A stretch of 42,653 bases of DNA, from IMG/VR virus record IMGVR_UViG_3300002059_000001, positions 1 through 42,653 of that record; one strand, written 5' to 3'. This DNA comes from a virus. The notes under the pieces are model-generated. The model saw only the letters and a list, made by a program, of their open reading frames with translations, was not told the DNA's origin and ran no database searches. Numbering within the stretch: position 1 is the first letter of the stretch; every line of letters starts with the position of its first letter. The position numbers were made by a program, and so were the translations under genes. Below are positions 515-42,653 of the stretch, one piece after another.

Positions 515-856
515 ATGCATAGAACACATAATTTAACACCGAAACAAATCGAACTTAAACGCGCTCTAATCTCCTCGGAGAGAGAGAACGGATATATTCC
601 GTCCTATGACGAACTCGCCGAAAAGCTCGGATATGCGTCTAAATCAGGTATTCACCGCCTTATGTCGGCTCTCGAGGAGCGAGGACATGTCTCCCGGCTC
701 CCGAATAAGTCTCGAGCGATAAAGATCCTCGATTATAACCTTCCGGGAGCGGCCGTCCCTGTTTCAGAACCTAAGCCTTACGCTTACGAGATCCCATTCC
801 TCGGCAAGGTCTCAGATCTTGGCAAGCGTTTGAAGAAGTCGAGATATGCAGCCTAA
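515..856 (+). CDS. LexA N-terminal DNA-binding-domain-only protein (no S24 peptidase domain)
   Basis: LTPKQIELKRAL...GYIPSYDELAEKLGYASKSGIHRLMSALEERGHVSRLPNKSRAIKIL closely follows the alphaproteobacterial LexA winged-helix signature (SKSGIHRLI.ALEERGFIRRLPNRARA). It continues to IPFLGKV and then stops. The SD-like tcaggaaagacc lies 5 nt upstream of the ATG. Confidence 0.8.
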   Translation: MHRTHNLTPKQIELKRALISSERENGYIPSYDELAEKLGYASKSGIHRLMSALEERGHVSRLPNKSRAIKILDYNLPGAAVPVSEPKPYAYEIPFLGKVSDLGKRLKKSRYAA

Positions 857-3664: not shown

Positions 3665-3921
3665 ACCCGCAACCCTTCCTACTCTCGGCCGTCCTCCGAC
3701 CTATCGACCGACCCTCCCGACCCTATGAGCGACCATAGAGGCCGAAGGACGCTCGCTCCCGCGCGCCGGACCGCGGAATAAAATTTTTTTTTGGCCTTTT
3801 AGAGACAATATGGGGAGGGGGGAGGTGTAAAGTTGTGGGCTTTTCGGGGTTCTAGCGGCGGCACTCACAAAAACTCACGTCCACAGTTGAAAAATCACCG
3901 ACCTAAATTCTAAGGGAAAGC
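3665..3921. other. non-coding region between HNH and terS; candidate cos/packaging-recognition site
   Basis: This 257-bp region is the largest non-coding gap in the genome. It holds a GC hairpin (ccgcg 3759-3763 / cgcgg 3772-3776), an A4T9 tract (3780-3792), a G-tract ggggaggggggagg (3812-3825) and cgacc-type short repeats (3700-3735). Confidence 0.45.
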
Positions 3922-4332
3922 ATGGGAAACGCTAGAACACCGAGAGCGAAGGCCGCCGTTACAGGAGCCGCGAAGAAGAATCCCGCTCGACAGAAGAAGA
4001 AGACAATCGTAAAAACTCCGCCGGTCGGAGCTCCGCCGGCTTGGCTCTCGGCCGACGCTAAGAAGGCGTGGAAGTTATTTCAGAAGGAGCTCCCTTGGCT
4101 TAAACAAAATCACCGCGCGTTCATGGAGGCGATATGTGTTCTCCGCGGAAAGCTAATGTCTAAGGAGGGATTATCCTCGACACAGACGACGACCTATCAG
4201 GCTATGCTCTCTAAACTCGGCGCGACACCGGCCGACGAGAGCAAGATATTAGCCGGAGATTGGAGCGGAGCTTCGGCTTCCTCCGGATCCAAAGGTCCAG
4301 CGAACGACAAAGACCCCTACTTCGATGACTAA
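3922..4332 (+). CDS. terS: terminase small subunit (P27 family-like)
   Basis: Basic N-terminus, then PPAWLSADAKKAWKLFQKEL...AICVLRG pattern. It lies immediately upstream of TerL and overlaps it. Confidence 0.75.
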   Translation: MGNARTPRAKAAVTGAAKKNPARQKKKTIVKTPPVGAPPAWLSADAKKAWKLFQKELPWLKQNHRAFMEAICVLRGKLMSKEGLSSTQTTTYQAMLSKLGATPADESKILAGDWSGASASSGSKGPANDKDPYFDD

Positions 4333-6190
4333 GAAGAGGACCGGTCCAGCTCTCGCGCGTCTGAATAAATACGCTCGCGCGGTTATTAAAGGGAAGATCG
4401 TCGCCGGGCCCCACGTCCGGAACGCATGTCGCCGACACTTGTCCGACGTGAAGATAGGATCTCAGCGCGGTTTATACTTTAACGAACCCGAGGCCGCGCG
4501 CGCTCTCGGCTTCTTTCCCGACCGTCTCAAATTATCCGAGGGACAGTTCGACGGCGTGCCGTTCAAACTCCACGACGCGCAAGCCTTCATTATCGGATCG
4601 ATCTACGGATGGTATAAAAAGAACACAGATACTCGCCGCTTCCGCCGAGCCTATATCGAGCAAGGGAAGGGGAACGGGAAATCTCCACTCGCCGGAGGGA
4701 TAGGTCTCTACGGTCTTATGGCAGACCGAGAACCGGGAGCGCAGATCTATTCCGCGGCTTCAAAGAAAGATCAGGCCGAGATCCTCTTCCGCGACGCCGT
4801 CAATATGGCGAAGAAAGCTCCGGAGATTGCGCGCCGGCTTACCGCTTCCGGCGGGCCCGGCCGTGAATATAACCTCGCCTATCTTCGGAACGGATCCTTC
4901 TTCCGTCCTATCTCTCGGGAAGCCGGGAAGTCTGGATCCGGGCCCCGACCGCATTACGCGCTCGTCGACGAGCTCCACGAATTGCAAGATCGTAAAATTA
5001 TCGAGATGCTCGAGCGCGGCTTTAAGTCGAGACGACAGCCTCTCTTGTTTATGATTACGAACTCCGGCTCCGACCGTAACTCGATATGTTGGGAGGAGCA
5101 CGAACACGCGGTTAAGGTCGCCGCGGGAAACCCGACCGCGACCGACGCCGACCCGCATTATCTCGGAGAGGTTCTGGACGACTCGACCTTCTCGTATGTT
5201 TGCGCTCTGGATCCCGACGACGATCCTCTTACGGATCCCTCGTGTTGGGCTAAAGCGAACCCGCTCCTAGGGACAATCCTTACAGAAGAATATCTCGCCG
5301 GCGTCGTCGCGCAAGCTCGAGCAATGCCGGGGAAGCTAAACGGGATCCTTCGTCTCCACTTCTGCCAATGGACCGACGCCGCCTCGGCATGGATAACCCG
5401 AGATCTTCTCGAACCTTGCCTCGGCGAGTTCGATCCTCTGGACTTGTATCGCGACGAGACAGTCTATCTCGGCCTCGACTTGTCTCAGAATAAAGACCTT
5501 ACGGCGAAAGCGTCTATCGTGAAGACGGGAACCGTTACCCGCGGGAAGCATAAAGGGAAACCGACTTACGACGCATGGGTCGAGATCTGGACGCCGGGAG
5601 ACACGGTCGCCGCTCGAGCTATCGAGGATAAAACAGATTACGAGCTATGGGTTCGACAGGGACATATCTCGGCTCCGTCCGGGAAGTCGATCTCCTATAC
5701 TCACGTCGCGCAAGCTATCGCCGAGGACGCTCACGCTTACGATATCGGACTTCTCGCGTTCGACGCTTACGCCTTCCGGAAGGGTCTCGTCCCCGAGATC
5801 GATAAAACCGGGATAGATATCGAGGCCGCATATATCGAACACCCGCAAGGCGGAACCAAAAAAGGACGGCCGAATCAAATCCTAATCGAGGCGGCCGAGG
5901 AGGAAGACCGGGAGCCCGAGGGTTTATGGATGCCCGGATCGGTTCGACAATTAGAGGACTTACTCTTAGAGAAGCGAATAAGGATCAAAACTAACCCGGC
6001 CGTTATCTCTGCTATGATGTCGGCCGCAATAGATACGGATCGATGGGAGAACTCTTGGCTCGCTAAGGGTCTCTCGACAAATAGAATCGACGCGGCGGTC
6101 GCGTTGTGTATGGCCGTCGGGGCCGCCTCTGCGATGGAAACCGTCGAGACAGTGGACACCGACGAATGGCTCGAGGGTTTTAAGGAATGA
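4325..6190 (+). CDS. terL: terminase large subunit (Terminase_1 / HK97-like)
   Basis: 621 aa with Walker A-like EQGKGNGKSPLAGG, a VDELHE Walker B region and a C-terminal nuclease region. Positioned before the portal gene. Confidence 0.93.
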   Translation: MTKKRTGPALARLNKYARAVIKGKIVAGPHVRNACRRHLSDVKIGSQRGLYFNEPEAARALGFFPDRLKLSEGQFDGVPFKLHDAQAFIIGSIYGWYKKNTDTRRFRRAYIEQGKGNGKSPLAGGIGLYGLMADREPGAQIYSAASKKDQAEILFRDAVNMAKKAPEIARRLTASGGPGREYNLAYLRNGSFFRPISREAGKSGSGPRPHYALVDELHELQDRKIIEMLERGFKSRRQPLLFMITNSGSDRNSICWEEHEHAVKVAAGNPTATDADPHYLGEVLDDSTFSYVCALDPDDDPLTDPSCWAKANPLLGTILTEEYLAGVVAQARAMPGKLNGILRLHFCQWTDAASAWITRDLLEPCLGEFDPLDLYRDETVYLGLDLSQNKDLTAKASIVKTGTVTRGKHKGKPTYDAWVEIWTPGDTVAARAIEDKTDYELWVRQGHISAPSGKSISYTHVAQAIAEDAHAYDIGLLAFDAYAFRKGLVPEIDKTGIDIEAAYIEHPQGGTKKGRPNQILIEAAEEEDREPEGLWMPGSVRQLEDLLLEKRIRIKTNPAVISAMMSAAIDTDRWENSWLAKGLSTNRIDAAVALCMAVGAASAMETVETVDTDEWLEGFKE

Positions 6191-27630: not shown

Positions 27631-28092
27631 TTAGTTAAAAGGGATTTCGTCGTCGAGATCGAAGTCTTCTTTCGATCTCTGGTTACTCTGAGAGTTCTCG
27701 TCGCGGGAGGTAGAAGATCCGGAAGATCTACGGCCGCCTCCCGAGCCGTCGCCGAGGAGAACGATCTTCCCTCCGAAACCGACGGCGACCTCTGTCGTAT
27801 ATTGATCGACGCCGTCTCGGTTCTGCCACTTCCGAGTCTGTAGCTTCCCCTCGAGGTAGACCTTAGATCCCTTCTTAGTGTATCGCTCGACAATCCCGAC
27901 GAGGCCGTCCCCGGTAATAACGACCTTATGCCATTCGGTCTTAGATCTCTTCTCCCCGGATTGCTTATCCCTCCACTCTTCCGAGGTCGCGATAGACAGG
28001 TTCGCGACCTTGCCTCCGTTCCCGAACGTTCGAACTTCCGGATCGTTTCCGAGGTTCCCGACTAAGATTACTTTGTTAACGCTACCCGCCAT
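27631..28092 (-). CDS. ssb: single-stranded DNA-binding protein
   Basis: [21 protein letters not shown]...TEWHKVV OB-fold signature, a Gly/Ser-rich linker and an acidic [10 protein letters not shown] tail. Confidence 0.95.
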
Positions 28093-28934: not shown

Positions 28935-29762
28935 TTATTGGTTTTTGTGAATAGGTTTTAAGGCGATCCGAAGACCCTCGGCCGCGTTTCTTATGGCTAT
29001 AGAGAAGCTCTCGAGAGACGCTCGAAGGTGAACGAATGAGTTCCGGCGCTCTATCCCGGCTTTAATCTCCTCTCTATGGTTCCGCCGTAAGGCGAGGATA
29101 TATGTCGGCCGATAAAAGACCCTCTTGTCCTCGTCGAGGAAAGCCTCCTTCGCTGTCCACGTCGCAAGCCAACGGGAGACGCGGTCCATAAAACGGATAA
29201 ACCTCGCCGATTCGAGGAGCTCGTTCCATGCTCTCTCGAGCCGCTCCCCGGCGTCCTTAAGAGACTCAGGAGAAGAGCTCTCGTCTCGAGGTTTAGGGTG
29301 TCGTCCTGTCCACGCCGCGCTGTCGTAAACGCCGGCCGAGAGAGTCTTTCCCTTCCTCTTATCGTAGACGACTCTATCTCCCTTTGCGAAGAGATATTCT
29401 AACGGAATAGAGAACTTCTTAGCTATGAGCTTCTTCGCTTCCTCCTCGAATATCGTAGACGTCCAGTCGCTCTCGCCGAAGTTCGTAAGAGTAAAGACCG
29501 TCCGTTCCGTTCCCGGCGTCGCTAAGTCTAATCTTATATCCGCGAAGATCTTCCGGCGGAGATCCTCGGCTTGTTCGTTTATTGGGAAGGTGAAGAGCCG
29601 GTCGTATTCTCCTCGATAGATTAGTTCGTACTCTCCGGCGTTGTTCGTCGATATCATTACCGGCATATATCGCCGGATAGGATTGTCGATAATATCGGCG
29701 CAACGTCGGCCGCTATGCCCCATAGTTTGCGCGACGGTTAAAGGGTATTTATGTCCGGACAT
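28935..29762 (-). CDS. hypothetical protein (275 aa)
   Basis: Long ORF on the operon strand. Overlaps the upstream gene by 14 nt. No motif recognised. Confidence 0.6.
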   Translation of the reverse strand: MSGHKYPLTVAQTMGHSGRRCADIIDNPIRRYMPVMISTNNAGEYELIYRGEYDRLFTFPINEQAEDLRRKIFADIRLDLATPGTERTVFTLTNFGESDWTSTIFEEEAKKLIAKKFSIPLEYLFAKGDRVVYDKRKGKTLSAGVYDSAAWTGRHPKPRDESSSPESLKDAGERLERAWNELLESARFIRFMDRVSRWLATWTAKEAFLDEDKRVFYRPTYILALRRNHREEIKAGIERRNSFVHLRASLESFSIAIRNAAEGLRIALKPIHKNQ

Positions 29763-30672
29763 GATCTGTCTCCTGTTGTTTTGGGAACTCGTTGCAAATA
29801 ACGCCGTCGAGCTTTCGTCCTGCTCTCTTCTTCCCTATTTTAACCATATCGTCAGAACCGACCCTCGAGCCTCTTCTGTCGTCTATAGGGACAATCTCTC
29901 CGACATTACCGACGACACTTGCGGGAGCCCATTCTCCCCACTGTTTAAACAGGAACGGGATCCCCGCCCGGAAGCATTGGTCGCGAAGGCTTCGAAGATG
30001 CCGCGGGATAGAAGACCGAGCGTTAGGACCGCTCTCCCCGCCGGCTATAATCCAGTCGAGGCCGAGCTCGACGTGTCTTAAGGCGTGGAACCCCTCCGCG
30101 CTATCGCTAGGCGAAAGCGGTCCAGAGAAGGGAATACAGGACAAATCTATAGCGCCGAGCATAGGCTCGCAAGAAAGGAACCTTACGGCGCAATCGTGTT
30201 GAACGAGATAGGGGATATTCCTCTCGGCGACCTCCTGATTCTCGACGGTCGTTCCTAACCAGACCCGACCTTTAATCTCGTCCCAAAAGGGAGGAAGCAT
30301 TTTCTCTATATTTTGCGGCCGCTTCGTAAGGAGTAACCAGTCGAGCGACGGCGTCTTCCGGATAAGATCCCATAGGTCCGCGCGCCATTCCTCCGGAACT
30401 TGATTGTCGAACACGTCGGCGAGCGAGGCGCAGAAGACACGCTGTCTCCGACCGAACTCCGCTCCGAACTTATTCGCTTCCCGCTCCCACTTAAGAGGCT
30501 TCTTCCAGTTAGATTCGGAAGTCCGTCTCCGCGGTCCTCCCCATTCGACCGTCTTAAACCTCGCCGCTCTCTCGGCCGCGTAACAAAAGTCGCAAGCCGG
30601 GGAGATCTTCGTACACCCTTCCCACGGATTAAACGTATGGTCGGTCCATTCTATCTTGCTTTGCTCTGCCAT
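29749..30672 (-). CDS. phage Gp37/Gp68 family protein (DUF5131)
   Basis: The N-terminal KIEWTDHTFNPWEGCTKISPACDFCYA is the family hallmark. ..LLLTKRP.. and ..DWIIAGGESGP...WVRSL-like ..FLFKQWGEW also match. Confidence 0.8.
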   Translation of the reverse strand: MAEQSKIEWTDHTFNPWEGCTKISPACDFCYAAERAARFKTVEWGGPRRRTSESNWKKPLKWEREANKFGAEFGRRQRVFCASLADVFDNQVPEEWRADLWDLIRKTPSLDWLLLTKRPQNIEKMLPPFWDEIKGRVWLGTTVENQEVAERNIPYLVQHDCAVRFLSCEPMLGAIDLSCIPFSGPLSPSDSAEGFHALRHVELGLDWIIAGGESGPNARSSIPRHLRSLRDQCFRAGIPFLFKQWGEWAPASVVGNVGEIVPIDDRRGSRVGSDDMVKIGKKRAGRKLDGVICNEFPKQQETDHVRT

Positions 30673-38336: not shown

Positions 38337-38469
38337 TTCCTGTCTGGTCGCACAACCCTAATAAGAGCTCAAAAACAAAATGCAAGTTATTTTTATGCAT
38401 ACTATACATAAAAAATGCTTGCTCTTTTTTATTCCATTCTCTAACGGAGACCCTGCGACCAGACAGGAA
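38337..38469. promoter_or_regulatory. divergent early control region: 16-bp perfect inverted repeat flanking an AT-rich quasi-palindrome
   Basis: ttcctgtctggtcgca (38337-38352) is the reverse complement of tgcgaccagacaggaa (38454-38469). An inner imperfect inverted repeat, gcaagttatttttatg (38382-38397) / cataaaaaatgcttgc (38407-38422), shares the same dyad centre at about 38402/3. Confidence 0.7.
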
Positions 38470-40250: not shown

Positions 40251-41726
40251 ATGCCAGTATTCGAAACAGAACCCGACGACCTCGGCCGGCGACAGAGGAT
40301 CGATCCGAGCTCCGCCGAAGCTGAGTCCGCTCTTCTCGGAATTATGCTCCGGGATAACCTCGCCGTCTACGCCGAGATCCGGGATATCATTAAGCCCGAA
40401 CACTTCTATCTCTCGACTCATGTCATGTTGGCGGAGCGAATGTTCGCGCTCTCCCGCAGAGGACAGCTCGCCGACGCTATCGTTATGAAAAACCGCCTAG
40501 CGCAGACGGAAGATCTCGTCGATATCGGCGGCGTCGAATATCTCGCTCTCCTCGTCGATAATGCCCCTCCGGCGAGAACGGCTCCGGAATACGCTCGCCT
40601 CGTCGCGGATATGTTCTCTCGCCGAGCTCTCATACGGTTAACCGAGGACGTCCTTAAGACCGCGAACGATCCAGATTCGGAGGAGAGCGCGGAAGACATG
40701 GTCTCGAGATACGGGGCCGAGCTCGGCGTCGTGCAAGAGACGTTCCCGAGCTCCGCGCGGTTTATCACAATGCAGGAAGCCGCTCGACAGGCGGCCGAGG
40801 CTATCGGCGAGGACCGCGCGATGGGCATAAACACCGGTTACGACGAGCTCGATAATAAGCTCGCCGGCCTCGGTCGAGGGAAGTTAATCGTTATCGCTGG
40901 ACGGCCGTCTATGGGGAAGACCTCCCTCGTTACCAATATCGCGCGCAATGTCGCGAAGGAGATAGCCTTCGAAGATGGATCTCCCGTCCCCGGTAAGGTC
41001 GGGTTCTTCTCTCAGGAAATGCCGGCTCTCGAGCTCGGAGAGAGATCCCTATCGGCCGAGCTCGGTCCGAAGGAGGAGATCGAATATCGAGACATTACCG
41101 CGCACGACCTAACGTCTTCGAAGACAGCTCGGGTCCGTAGCGCGGTCGAGGACGTCTCAGACCATGTTCTAATCGACGAGACCGCGGGTCTTACCTATTC
41201 CGAGCTCGAGAAGCGCGCTCGAGCTATGGAGAAGCAGCTCGGAGGCCTCGACGTCCTCGTCGTGGATTACTTACAGCTTATGGAAGGAACCGACGCTCCG
41301 GACCCTCGCTCCGACGTGAAGTATTACGGCTGGATCTCGAACAATCTTAAGAAGCTCGCTAAGAAGATGAATATCGCCGTTCTCCTTCTCTCTCAGCTCT
41401 CCCGGAAGGTCGAGGACAGAGAGAACAAGCGGCCGCGAAAGGCCGACCTTAAAGGATCCGGAACTATCGAGGACGCGGCCGACGTAATTCTATTCGTCTT
41501 CCGTCCCGAGTATTATCTCGTCGAAGCCGGCGAGCCCGAAGGCCGGGAGAAGAAGGAGGCTTATTTTAAGGCTCTGAATTTTGCCAAAAATAAGATGGAT
41601 ATAATTATCGGGAAGAATAAAGGCGGACCGCTCGGCGTCGTCCCTCTCCGATGTTTCCTACCATATGACATAATTACAGAACTCGCCGACGACGGAGAAG
41701 GACTAGACGAAGAGATAGCGTTCTGA
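40251..41726 (+). CDS. dnaB: replicative DNA helicase (DnaB family)
   Basis: N-terminal PSSAEAESALLGIML, Walker A GRPSMGKTS, VVDYLQLM and LLLSQLSR motifs. 491 aa. Confidence 0.93.
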   Translation: MPVFETEPDDLGRRQRIDPSSAEAESALLGIMLRDNLAVYAEIRDIIKPEHFYLSTHVMLAERMFALSRRGQLADAIVMKNRLAQTEDLVDIGGVEYLALLVDNAPPARTAPEYARLVADMFSRRALIRLTEDVLKTANDPDSEESAEDMVSRYGAELGVVQETFPSSARFITMQEAARQAAEAIGEDRAMGINTGYDELDNKLAGLGRGKLIVIAGRPSMGKTSLVTNIARNVAKEIAFEDGSPVPGKVGFFSQEMPALELGERSLSAELGPKEEIEYRDITAHDLTSSKTARVRSAVEDVSDHVLIDETAGLTYSELEKRARAMEKQLGGLDVLVVDYLQLMEGTDAPDPRSDVKYYGWISNNLKKLAKKMNIAVLLLSQLSRKVEDRENKRPRKADLKGSGTIEDAADVILFVFRPEYYLVEAGEPEGREKKEAYFKALNFAKNKMDIIIGKNKGGPLGVVPLRCFLPYDIITELADDGEGLDEEIAF

Positions 41727-41742: not shown

Positions 41743-41780
41743 AAAAAACCCCTCGACTCGGGCGCGACCAGAACGAGGGG
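41743..41780 (-). terminator. second leftward-oriented hairpin plus T6
   Basis: cccctcg (41749-41755) / cgagggg (41774-41780) with an 18-nt loop. On the minus strand it is followed by TTTTTT (plus-strand A6 at 41743-41748). Confidence 0.35.
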
Positions 41781-41796
41781 CTTAATCAGTCTCAGG

Positions 41797-41925: not shown

Positions 41926-42653
41926 ATGAGTATCGCAGTAACGAGCCTCATTCTGTCCCGTAAGGTCGGCGGTCCGACCCGGAAGATCATTCTCCTAATG
42001 CTTGGCGATTGCGCTAACGACGACGGCTCCGGGATATGGCCTAGCAAGTCGACAATCGCCGCGAAGACAGAGGTCCACCGCGACACAGTTAAAAAACACA
42101 TTCGGGAAATGTGTAAGGATGGTCTATTAGTGAAGGTCGGCCGTCGACCGTGTTCGAATGGCTATACGACCGAATACTCGCTCGACGTCGCGAAGTTATT
42201 CTCGTTCCCGACGACGGGGGGAATTTTACACCCCGTAGGCGGAGAATCACCGGGAGGAGGTGACACAGACCCCGAGGACATGGGGGCCGACGACACCCCA
42301 AACCATAATAAACCGTCAATTACCCACCCGTCGGCGGAAGAGGTATTCGAAAAGCTATGGAAAGAAGTTCTAGCTATAACTCCGAACGAGATTAAAGGTC
42401 GACACGCTAAGAAGCCTTGTCTCGCCAAATTTAAGAAGATCTCGTCCCGTAAACGGGAACCTATAGCCGCGTCTCGCATAGCTCACGCCGTTTTATGGTA
42501 TTACGATCAAGATCCGCAGAAGAAGGACGACCGGCGATTTATGAAGGGTCTCGGTCCGGTCCTAAATGGCGAGGCGTTCGCGAATTACCTCGATAAGGGA
42601 CCGTTCAAGATCCGGACAGAAGAGGACGCCGAAGTCGAGGCTTGGAAGTTCCG
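41926..42653 (+). CDS. winged-helix replication-initiator-like protein, 5' part (wraps to 50..191)
   Basis: ATG at 41926 after gaggag. KIILLMLGDCANDDGSGIWPSKSTIAAKTEVHRDTVKKHIREMCKDGLLVKV is a typical phage HTH initiator/DnaD-like N-domain. The frame is open to the window end, so the ORF is absent from the track. Confidence 0.7.
   Translation, partial: MSIAVTSLILSRKVGGPTRKIILLMLGDCANDDGSGIWPSKSTIAAKTEVHRDTVKKHIREMCKDGLLVKVGRRPCSNGYTTEYSLDVAKLFSFPTTGGILHPVGGESPGGGDTDPEDMGADDTPNHNKPSITHPSAEEVFEKLWKEVLAITPNEIKGRHAKKPCLAKFKKISSRKREPIAASRIAHAVLWYYDQDPQKKDDRRFMKGLGPVLNGEAFANYLDKGPFKIRTEEDAEVEAWKF
42605..42653. repeat. 49-bp terminal direct repeat, copy 2
   Basis: Identical to bases 1-49. Confidence 0.97.

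Follow-up and report, generated by a model that had tools for sequence, protein, structure and literature searches.

Truncated homologues of the SOS repressor LexA are already known from phages, in the shape of GIL01 gp6 (PMC6182141) and the protein families PHROG 362 and PHROG 3502. Gp6 belongs to a Bacillus tectivirus and is a homologue of the AP50 'LexA-like protein'; its gene precedes the late genes, and the protein consists mainly of the DNA-binding domain (the published alignment spans the first 75 LexA residues only), recognizes a palindromic operator of its own and acts as an activator (PMC6182141). Here we describe a LexA-derived gene in the viral record IMGVR_UViG_3300002059_000001 from IMG/VR, whose 42,653 nucleotides were analysed as a whole and are referred to below as the window. 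In the open reading frame (ORF) listing the gene is complete, occupying positions 515–856 of the plus strand with an ATG start and a stop codon at 854–856, and it encodes 113 residues. Like gp6 the product is a truncated LexA encoded ahead of late genes, and because the window also encodes TerL, a portal protein, a major capsid protein, a tape measure protein and a tail fibre, it is a phage-borne one. It comprises the LexA N-terminal domain, the hinge and a remnant of the cleavage-site strand.

A LexA DNA-binding domain had been proposed at the N-terminus by a first-pass annotation of the window, and both profile and structure searches bore this out. PF01726 (LexA_DNA_bind) matched residues 6–68 (530–718) with E=1e-10 and 41.7 bits, against a gathering threshold of 23.7, and no other Pfam family scored above threshold for this protein. 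In the NCBIfam profile TIGR00498 (lexA), residues 5–100 aligned with positions 2–87 of 203, which indicates that the homology extends through the cleavage-site strand and ends there; the score of 46.6 bits fell far short of the equivalog cut-off of 110.95 for a full LexA. A sequence search of the PDB returned LexA proteins only. The AlphaFold2 (AF2) model contained a winged helix-turn-helix at a predicted local distance difference test score (pLDDT) of 83–88, with helices at residues 9–25, 31–38 and 43–55 and strands at 59–61 and 69–71. Its top Foldseek matches in the PDB were the Thermotoga and E. coli LexA structures 3k2z, 3jso and 1lea, at a root mean square deviation of 1.2–1.6 Å over 66–71 residues. 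The domain is followed by a hinge (residues 73–88; 731–778) that is predicted to be disordered, with a pLDDT of ∼55–70.

Beyond the hinge, residues 89–100 (YAYEIPFLGKVS; 779–814) align with the cellular strand IP(V/L)(M/L)G(R/K)IAAG. For column counts here and below, the window protein was aligned with 79 of the best 80 cellular LexA proteins from a genome scan that took one genome per species and yielded at least 80 loci. I93-P94-F95-L96-G97-K98-V99 matches the cellular (I/V)-P-(V/L)-(M/L)-G-(R/K)-I column for column, with P94 and G97 invariant in 79/79, in agreement with the first-pass reading of IPFLGKV as the LexA cleavage strand. The A-A-G that follows in 78–79 of the 79 cellular proteins is represented by S100-D101-(L102)-G103 in the window protein and by S-A-L-R-G in the related protein P0003, so the scissile Ala-Gly bond has been removed through substitution plus insertion. 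The protein had been described as truncated exactly before the cleavage site. The truncation stands; the word 'exactly' does not, because the ORF includes the position of the site, in destroyed form, and continues for ∼10 residues past that of the scissile Gly.

No protease domain accompanies the strand, as had also been claimed. S24 (PF00717) had no Pfam match in the gene or in the neighbouring ORFs tested. When six full-length LexA proteins were compared with the circularized window by tblastn, only 533–814 was matched (LexA residues 2 to 95–101, E 1e-20 to 1e-25), and queries consisting of LexA C-terminal domains returned only noise across the whole circularized window, with nothing better than E=0.25. 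In the absence of both the Ala-Gly bond and the S24 domain, RecA*-stimulated autocleavage cannot inactivate the window protein, which upholds the earlier suggestion that it is blind to RecA*.

A short gene of this kind might be a functionless product of decay, or of a sequencing or assembly frameshift, in a full-length phage LexA or CI-like repressor. The protein does end soon after the cleavage-site position and its last 13 codons look unconstrained, as this explanation would have it, but the relatives make it extremely improbable and we reject it. The closest two are P0002 (113 residues, 74% identity) and P0003 (111 residues, 71% identity). The gene for P0003 is syntenic with the window gene in a related phage contig of 31 kb, and that for P0002 is flanked by homologues of the same neighbours on a contig of 2.2 kb. 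Equal length and position are therefore maintained in three phages, and four more distant complete short homologues occur in other phage-like contigs. Comparison of the whole gene with that of the related locus L003 gave a non-synonymous divergence (dN) of 0.22 and a synonymous divergence (dS) of 1.08 (dN/dS ∼0.2). No remnant of S24 was found in the neighbouring frames or in any other frame of the whole genome. Translation signals are also in place: a Shine-Dalgarno-like AGGAAAG (500–506), read from the sequence, lies 8 nt before the ATG, and an 11-nt overlap with the next plus-strand ORF (846–1244; 132 residues, phrog_16311, function unknown, 82–87% identity in L003 and in a second related locus, L004) suggests translational coupling. 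The first-pass view of a genuine gene is upheld on these grounds. The gene is old, constrained and under purifying selection, and putatively expressed.

Selection is not evenly distributed along the protein. Across residues 89–100, window and L003 differ by five synonymous and two non-synonymous changes (dN/dS ∼0.06). The last 13 codons gave values of ∼1.2 (window versus L003) and ∼0.6 (L004 versus L003). An exhaustive HMMER search of 1.84 billion representatives produced 4495 matches at E up to 0.001, yet the cleavage-strand tail was present in only about seven proteins (P0001–3, P0012, P0021, P0058 and, in part, P0013). P0012 has 112 residues, 47% identity and the strand YLIPFLGKVSDLSKY; P0021 reads VPFIGKMSAY and P0058 IPFGGKL. 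The motif has been kept in these three despite identities of 40–47%, and all three are complete genes in tightly packed phage-like operons, each following an HNH-like ORF. These comparisons show that the uncleavable strand is conserved in a phage subfamily that is both small and old. Two JGI metagenome scans yielded no further members, and the isolate-phage collection held no relative above 41% identity and no megablast match. The second-best HMMER match, P0011, was discarded: it is a 2741-residue eukaryote-like protein of tandem zinc-knuckle repeats whose 38 weak stretches add up to a summed-score artefact.

Two observations concern the distant members. In the loci L085, L087 and L088 the LexA-like gene always follows a conserved ORF of 157–167 residues with an HNH-like CxxC...DH...ACH motif, and the two may form a conserved gene pair. 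P0021 itself (160 residues; L088, 934–1416) is a fusion or the result of a missed stop, joining a short LexA-like protein to a homologue of the next small ORF (L087, 1417–1704), with which it has a tail in common (RVRKHLAKVKLMG in one, RVSQHVRKIKLMG in the other).

Short LexA derivatives lacking S24 are more widespread than the strand. All 42 of 42 relatives in IMG/VR were short (83–163 residues) and without an S24 domain, and many carried SKSG(I/V)HRL. The window protein also matched phrog_3502 (E=8.8e-14, residues 3–73) and phrog_362 (E=3.1e-8, residues 5–81). These families and the IMG/VR derivatives, which consist of the N-terminal domain only, resemble the window protein in significant homology and in their S24-less short form; they differ in their C-terminal tails, which among the IMG/VR relatives are diverse, some of the ELxxRGFxV type and others ribbon-helix-helix-like.

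The first-pass annotation had further suggested that the -AA terminus mimics the end exposed by LexA cleavage and serves as a degron. This was not supported. The final residues (101–113, DLGKRLKKSRYAA; 815–853) form a variable tail by both their dN/dS values and the ends of the homologues, which read -YAA in the two closest proteins only, -YAF in P0003, -RERS in P0012 and -LLKE in P0058. They also overlap the next ORF, whose ATG at 846 falls within the Y-A codons (TAT GCn) of the terminal R-Y-A-A, and this start codon alone explains the Y-A. The comparisons do not support a selected ClpXP tag. In the natural N-terminal fragment of cleaved LexA the chain ends in VAA and is cleared by ClpXP, whereas in the window protein the equivalent residues are internal (V-S-D) and the real C-terminus is variable. 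The free LexA N-terminal domain still binds SOS boxes and represses, and ClpXP is required to clear it from cells (PMC10584840, PMC10055390). Like this fragment and the LexA(Ind-) mutants G85D and S119A, the window protein is predicted to bind SOS boxes and to resist removal by RecA*. Unlike it, the Ind- mutants retain the dimerization domain.

We then considered where the gene came from. The best 80 loci of the genome scan were all alphaproteobacterial lexA genes (from Hellea, Methylobacterium, Rhizobium, Henriciella and sphingomonads, among others) with 45–58% identity over the N-terminal domain. In the profile search the closest cellular proteins were LexA proteins of 210–213 residues, the named ones from Hellea, Litorimonas and Robiginitomaculum (Maricaulales, Robiginitomaculaceae). 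They share with the window protein 46–52% identity over residues 7–100, an identical SKSGIHRL helix, an equal hinge length and a rare (V/I)PF(V/L)GK(I/V) strand. The Phe at this position is rare across the broader sample of 79 alphaproteobacterial LexA proteins, yet (V/I)PFVGKI precedes AAG in 103 of the 117 full-length Robiginitomaculaceae-type sequences fetched. This shared rare strand points to the Robiginitomaculaceae as the donor clade and probably the host clade too, and overall the comparison points to capture from an alphaproteobacterial lexA most like that of Hellea and Litorimonas.

The DNA-reading surface is of the cellular type. Within the recognition helix (residues 42–55, SKSGIHRLMSALEE; 638–679), defined from the alignment columns, S42-K43-S44-G45-I46-H47-R48-L49 carries the residue present in 79/79 cellular alphaproteobacterial LexA proteins. 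In the wing, R61, R67 and A68 are likewise invariant in 79/79, and L62, P63 and N64 are the majority residues. Since GAAC-N7-GAAC or its complement occurs in the 250 nt that precede 71 of the best 80 cellular lexA genes, the SKSGIHRL-type helix is expected to read the classical alphaproteobacterial SOS box. Other features depart from the cellular pattern. Unlike cellular alphaproteobacterial LexA, the window protein lacks the Ala-Gly bond, the Ser/Lys peptidase domain and the dimerization domain; its gene is phage-encoded and has no SOS box upstream; and it carries the substitutions F58H, R60S and E70K at positions that are invariant in cellular LexA. F58, R60 and E70 are altered in every truncated homologue, which fits a loss of contacts dependent on the C-terminal domain.

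The first-pass annotation had listed regulation of phage genes among the possible roles. Such regulation through SOS boxes found no support in the window. Exact GTTC-N7-GTTC or GAAC-N7-GAAC sites numbered three against 1.96 expected, all within coding sequence, and the best match to a position weight matrix built from 52 distinct lexA-upstream boxes scored 14.6 bits, compared with a shuffle maximum of 11.9 ± 2.3. Three one-mismatch sites lay in intergenic DNA, none of them convincing. No SOS boxes were found in the related phage loci, and the surroundings of the 42 IMG/VR genes contained seven sites against 5.8 expected. When GAAC/GTTC pairs were counted in all arrangements at spacings of 0–20, direct repeats with spacings of 5 and 13 (five sites each) came out just above every shuffle; these sites were scattered and almost all coding, no arrangement clustered in intergenic DNA, and no geometry was taken as enriched. 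A dense GAAC/GTTC cluster at 28000–28040 lies within the SSB gene, where it encodes the conserved N-terminus, and was dismissed as a codon effect. This leaves two possibilities: action on host SOS boxes, or a phage operator that the sequence does not reveal.

Tentatively, and at somewhat less than an even chance, we favour the first of these: a RecA-blind, LexA-derived DNA binder that would occupy host-type GAAC sites and keep the SOS regulon off during infection. With host-type residues in both recognition helix and wing, the same GAAC half-sites would most likely be recognized, and as the phage has no SOS box of its own, host SOS promoters would be the likeliest targets. If the product is abundant during infection, the SOS regulon could stay repressed even when RecA* forms as the phage replicates and recombines, and even when the LexA of the host is cut. 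The genes so held down may include SOS-induced suicide or division-block functions and LexA-controlled prophages or defences. The conserved YE(I/V)PF(L/I)GK(V/M)S tail probably provides self-association, or contact with a partner, in place of the dimerization domain. There is precedent for phages manipulating the SOS response in GIL01 gp7 (PMC4551915) and AriS (PMC9043618). The possible common outcome for gp7, the Listeria AriS and the window protein is a damped host SOS induction to the benefit of the phage; gp7 and AriS are, however, unrelated to the window protein and act on LexA or RecA as proteins instead of being LexA-derived DNA binders.

Several considerations weigh against this proposal. 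Without its dimerization domain the N-terminal domain of E. coli LexA binds operators much more weakly, so that either high expression or dimerization through the tail would be required. The AF2 model lends the latter no help, as it leaves residues 73–113 unstructured and gives the tail a pLDDT of ∼50 with no structure. The recognition helix, moreover, varies within the subfamily (S42A and H47N in P0012, S44A in P0021, H47N and L49M in P0058, G45A in P0003), a pattern that resembles co-evolution with operators specific to the phages. Small DNA-binding proteins of phages mostly have the DNA of the phage as their target. Finally, gp6, the only characterized truncated LexA of a phage, regulates phage and not host genes (PMC6182141).

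These points lead to a second explanation, which we regard as almost equally likely. Here the protein would be a regulator in the manner of gp6, expressed from an early or middle transcript, which binds a phage operator and activates or represses middle or late transcription and has no action on host SOS genes. Its operator could be non-canonical, for example with GAAC half-sites arranged in another way. Gp6 supplies the precedent by binding a site that overlaps the −35 element of the late promoter P3 and activating P3 (PMC6182141). The location of the window gene is suitable, between the replication module with DnaB (40251–41726) and the packaging module with TerL (4325–6190), both on the same strand, and near other putative regulators such as a MarR-family protein (2475–2786) that is also found in L003. 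PHROG 362 is annotated as 'transcriptional repressor', the short N-domain-only form and diverse tails of all 42 IMG/VR relatives resemble those of ordinary phage regulators, the variation in the recognition helix fits, and so does the base rate for phage DNA-binding proteins. Against it, no candidate operator came to light: there are no intergenic GAAC/GTTC clusters, and the region upstream of the gene is free of repeats. Despite a long divergence the helix is still identical to the host type, in contrast to gp6, for which the evolution of a distinct specificity is reported. A regulator of this type also leaves the conservation of a LexA-specific strand as its tail unexplained.

The strand is central to a third explanation, which we hold to be unlikely. 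With or without the N-terminal domain, the uncleavable remnant would dock on the catalytic and dimerization domain of host LexA, including cleaved C-terminal fragments, or on the RecA* filament, and would serve there as a pseudo-substrate or competitor. Cleavage of LexA or CI-type proteins might then be blocked or retuned, or a damage-proof repressor rebuilt with host C-terminal fragments, outcomes that seem to us similarly improbable. Outside the winged helix-turn-helix, no part of the protein is more constrained than YE(I/V)PF(L/I)GK(V/M)S (dN/dS ∼0.06), which persists in homologues with 40–47% identity and in LexA pairs naturally with the C-terminal domain. In the E. coli protein, V79 and V82 help to form the pocket for RecA F203, and a RecA L2 loop braces the N-terminal domain (bioRxiv 10.1101/2023.10.30.564768); L96 and V99 of the window protein correspond to those two pocket residues. 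The other four of the six, however, reside in the C-terminal domain and are absent here, and LexA cleavage is intramolecular, so that a competitor acting in trans should be weak. The strand may also be plain inheritance from the donor, as the 103 of 117 sequences with (V/I)PFVGKI would allow, and have been reused for self-association. If the mimic did operate, it would constitute a new viral route for hijacking the SOS switch.

The comparison with gp6 points to two LexA proteins captured independently, from hosts of different phyla. The source of gp6 was a LexA of Firmicutes and that of the window protein an alphaproteobacterial one, to which the window protein is 46–52% identical, as against 36% identity to the AP50 LexA-like gene (tblastn, E=1e-4). 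Gp6 has an operator of its own, and none is visible in the window genome. Unlike gp6, the window protein retains the hinge, the conserved uncleavable remnant of the cleavage strand and a recognition helix identical to that of the host. What distinguishes it is this remnant, found in a rare subfamily of some seven proteins, together with the host-identical helix.

The genomic setting was examined for further indications. The first 49 nt (1–49) are repeated exactly at 42605–42653, which identifies the window as the full genome, circular or terminally redundant, of a siphovirus-like phage (∼42.6 kb). The plus strand encodes terminase, portal, major head protein, tape measure and a 2062-residue fibre, and the minus strand RecT-like, exonuclease, SSB, methyltransferase and HNH genes. 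Among the ORFs tested we found neither an integrase nor a CI-type S24 repressor, for which reason a role in lytic growth fits better than prophage immunity. When the genome ends are joined, an HTH_36-family ORF of 289 residues runs from 41926 across the junction to 191; the LexA-like gene follows this wrapped gene and a 79-residue ORF, and is preceded by an 84-nt spacer.

The core of this spacer, a non-coding block at 433–484 on the plus strand, is near-invariant among the window, L003 and L004, unlike the sequence on its upstream side, and homology with L003 begins at 434. The block is a candidate promoter or 5′ leader travelling with the gene. It contained no repeats or palindromes, had no copy elsewhere in the window, no supported RNA fold and no Rfam match, and a promoter scan of the region upstream of the gene found nothing. 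On the other side, the ORF at 846–1244 had been considered as GcrA-like because its N-terminus resembles a small helix-turn-helix; searches of Pfam, NCBIfam and the PDB did not support this.

Some features elsewhere in the window were also recorded. The ORF at 1241–1681 matches phrog_4786, annotated 'cysteine dioxygenase' (E=1e-47), and 29749–30672 encodes a DUF5131 protein (E=2e-83). A non-coding block upstream of terS (3696–3921), strongly conserved with L003, holds direct repeats (CCGACCTATCGACCGACC, CCGACCCTATGAGCGACC), a hairpin and the G-run GGGGAGGGGGGAGG, and is a candidate cos or pac site or late promoter. A gap of ∼480 nt separates the leftward from the rightward genes and contains an AT-rich, imperfect 31-nt inverted repeat (38371–38433) with the repeated unit AAAATGCAAG/AAAATGCTTG, likely an early operator or promoter or an origin region and unrelated to the GAAC boxes. 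Directly after dnaB, a GC-rich hairpin at 41746–41783 (AAACCCCTCG ... CGAGGGGCTT), with a 22-nt direct repeat around it, resembles a terminator and may separate the replication operon from the transcription unit of the LexA-like gene.

The cleavage-site strand of this protein has been kept, conserved and made uncleavable, and no published function explains that feature. From the conserved helix and wing we infer a LexA-like DNA specificity, and if the protein does sit on host SOS boxes, as in the RecA-blind repressor that we tentatively favour, it would be a natural, virus-encoded equivalent of LexA(Ind-). It would also offer a simple tool for SOS-blind repression in Alphaproteobacteria. For the biology of these phages it would mean that they silence the DNA-damage response of their alphaproteobacterial hosts by copying the repressor, and not by targeting RecA or LexA.

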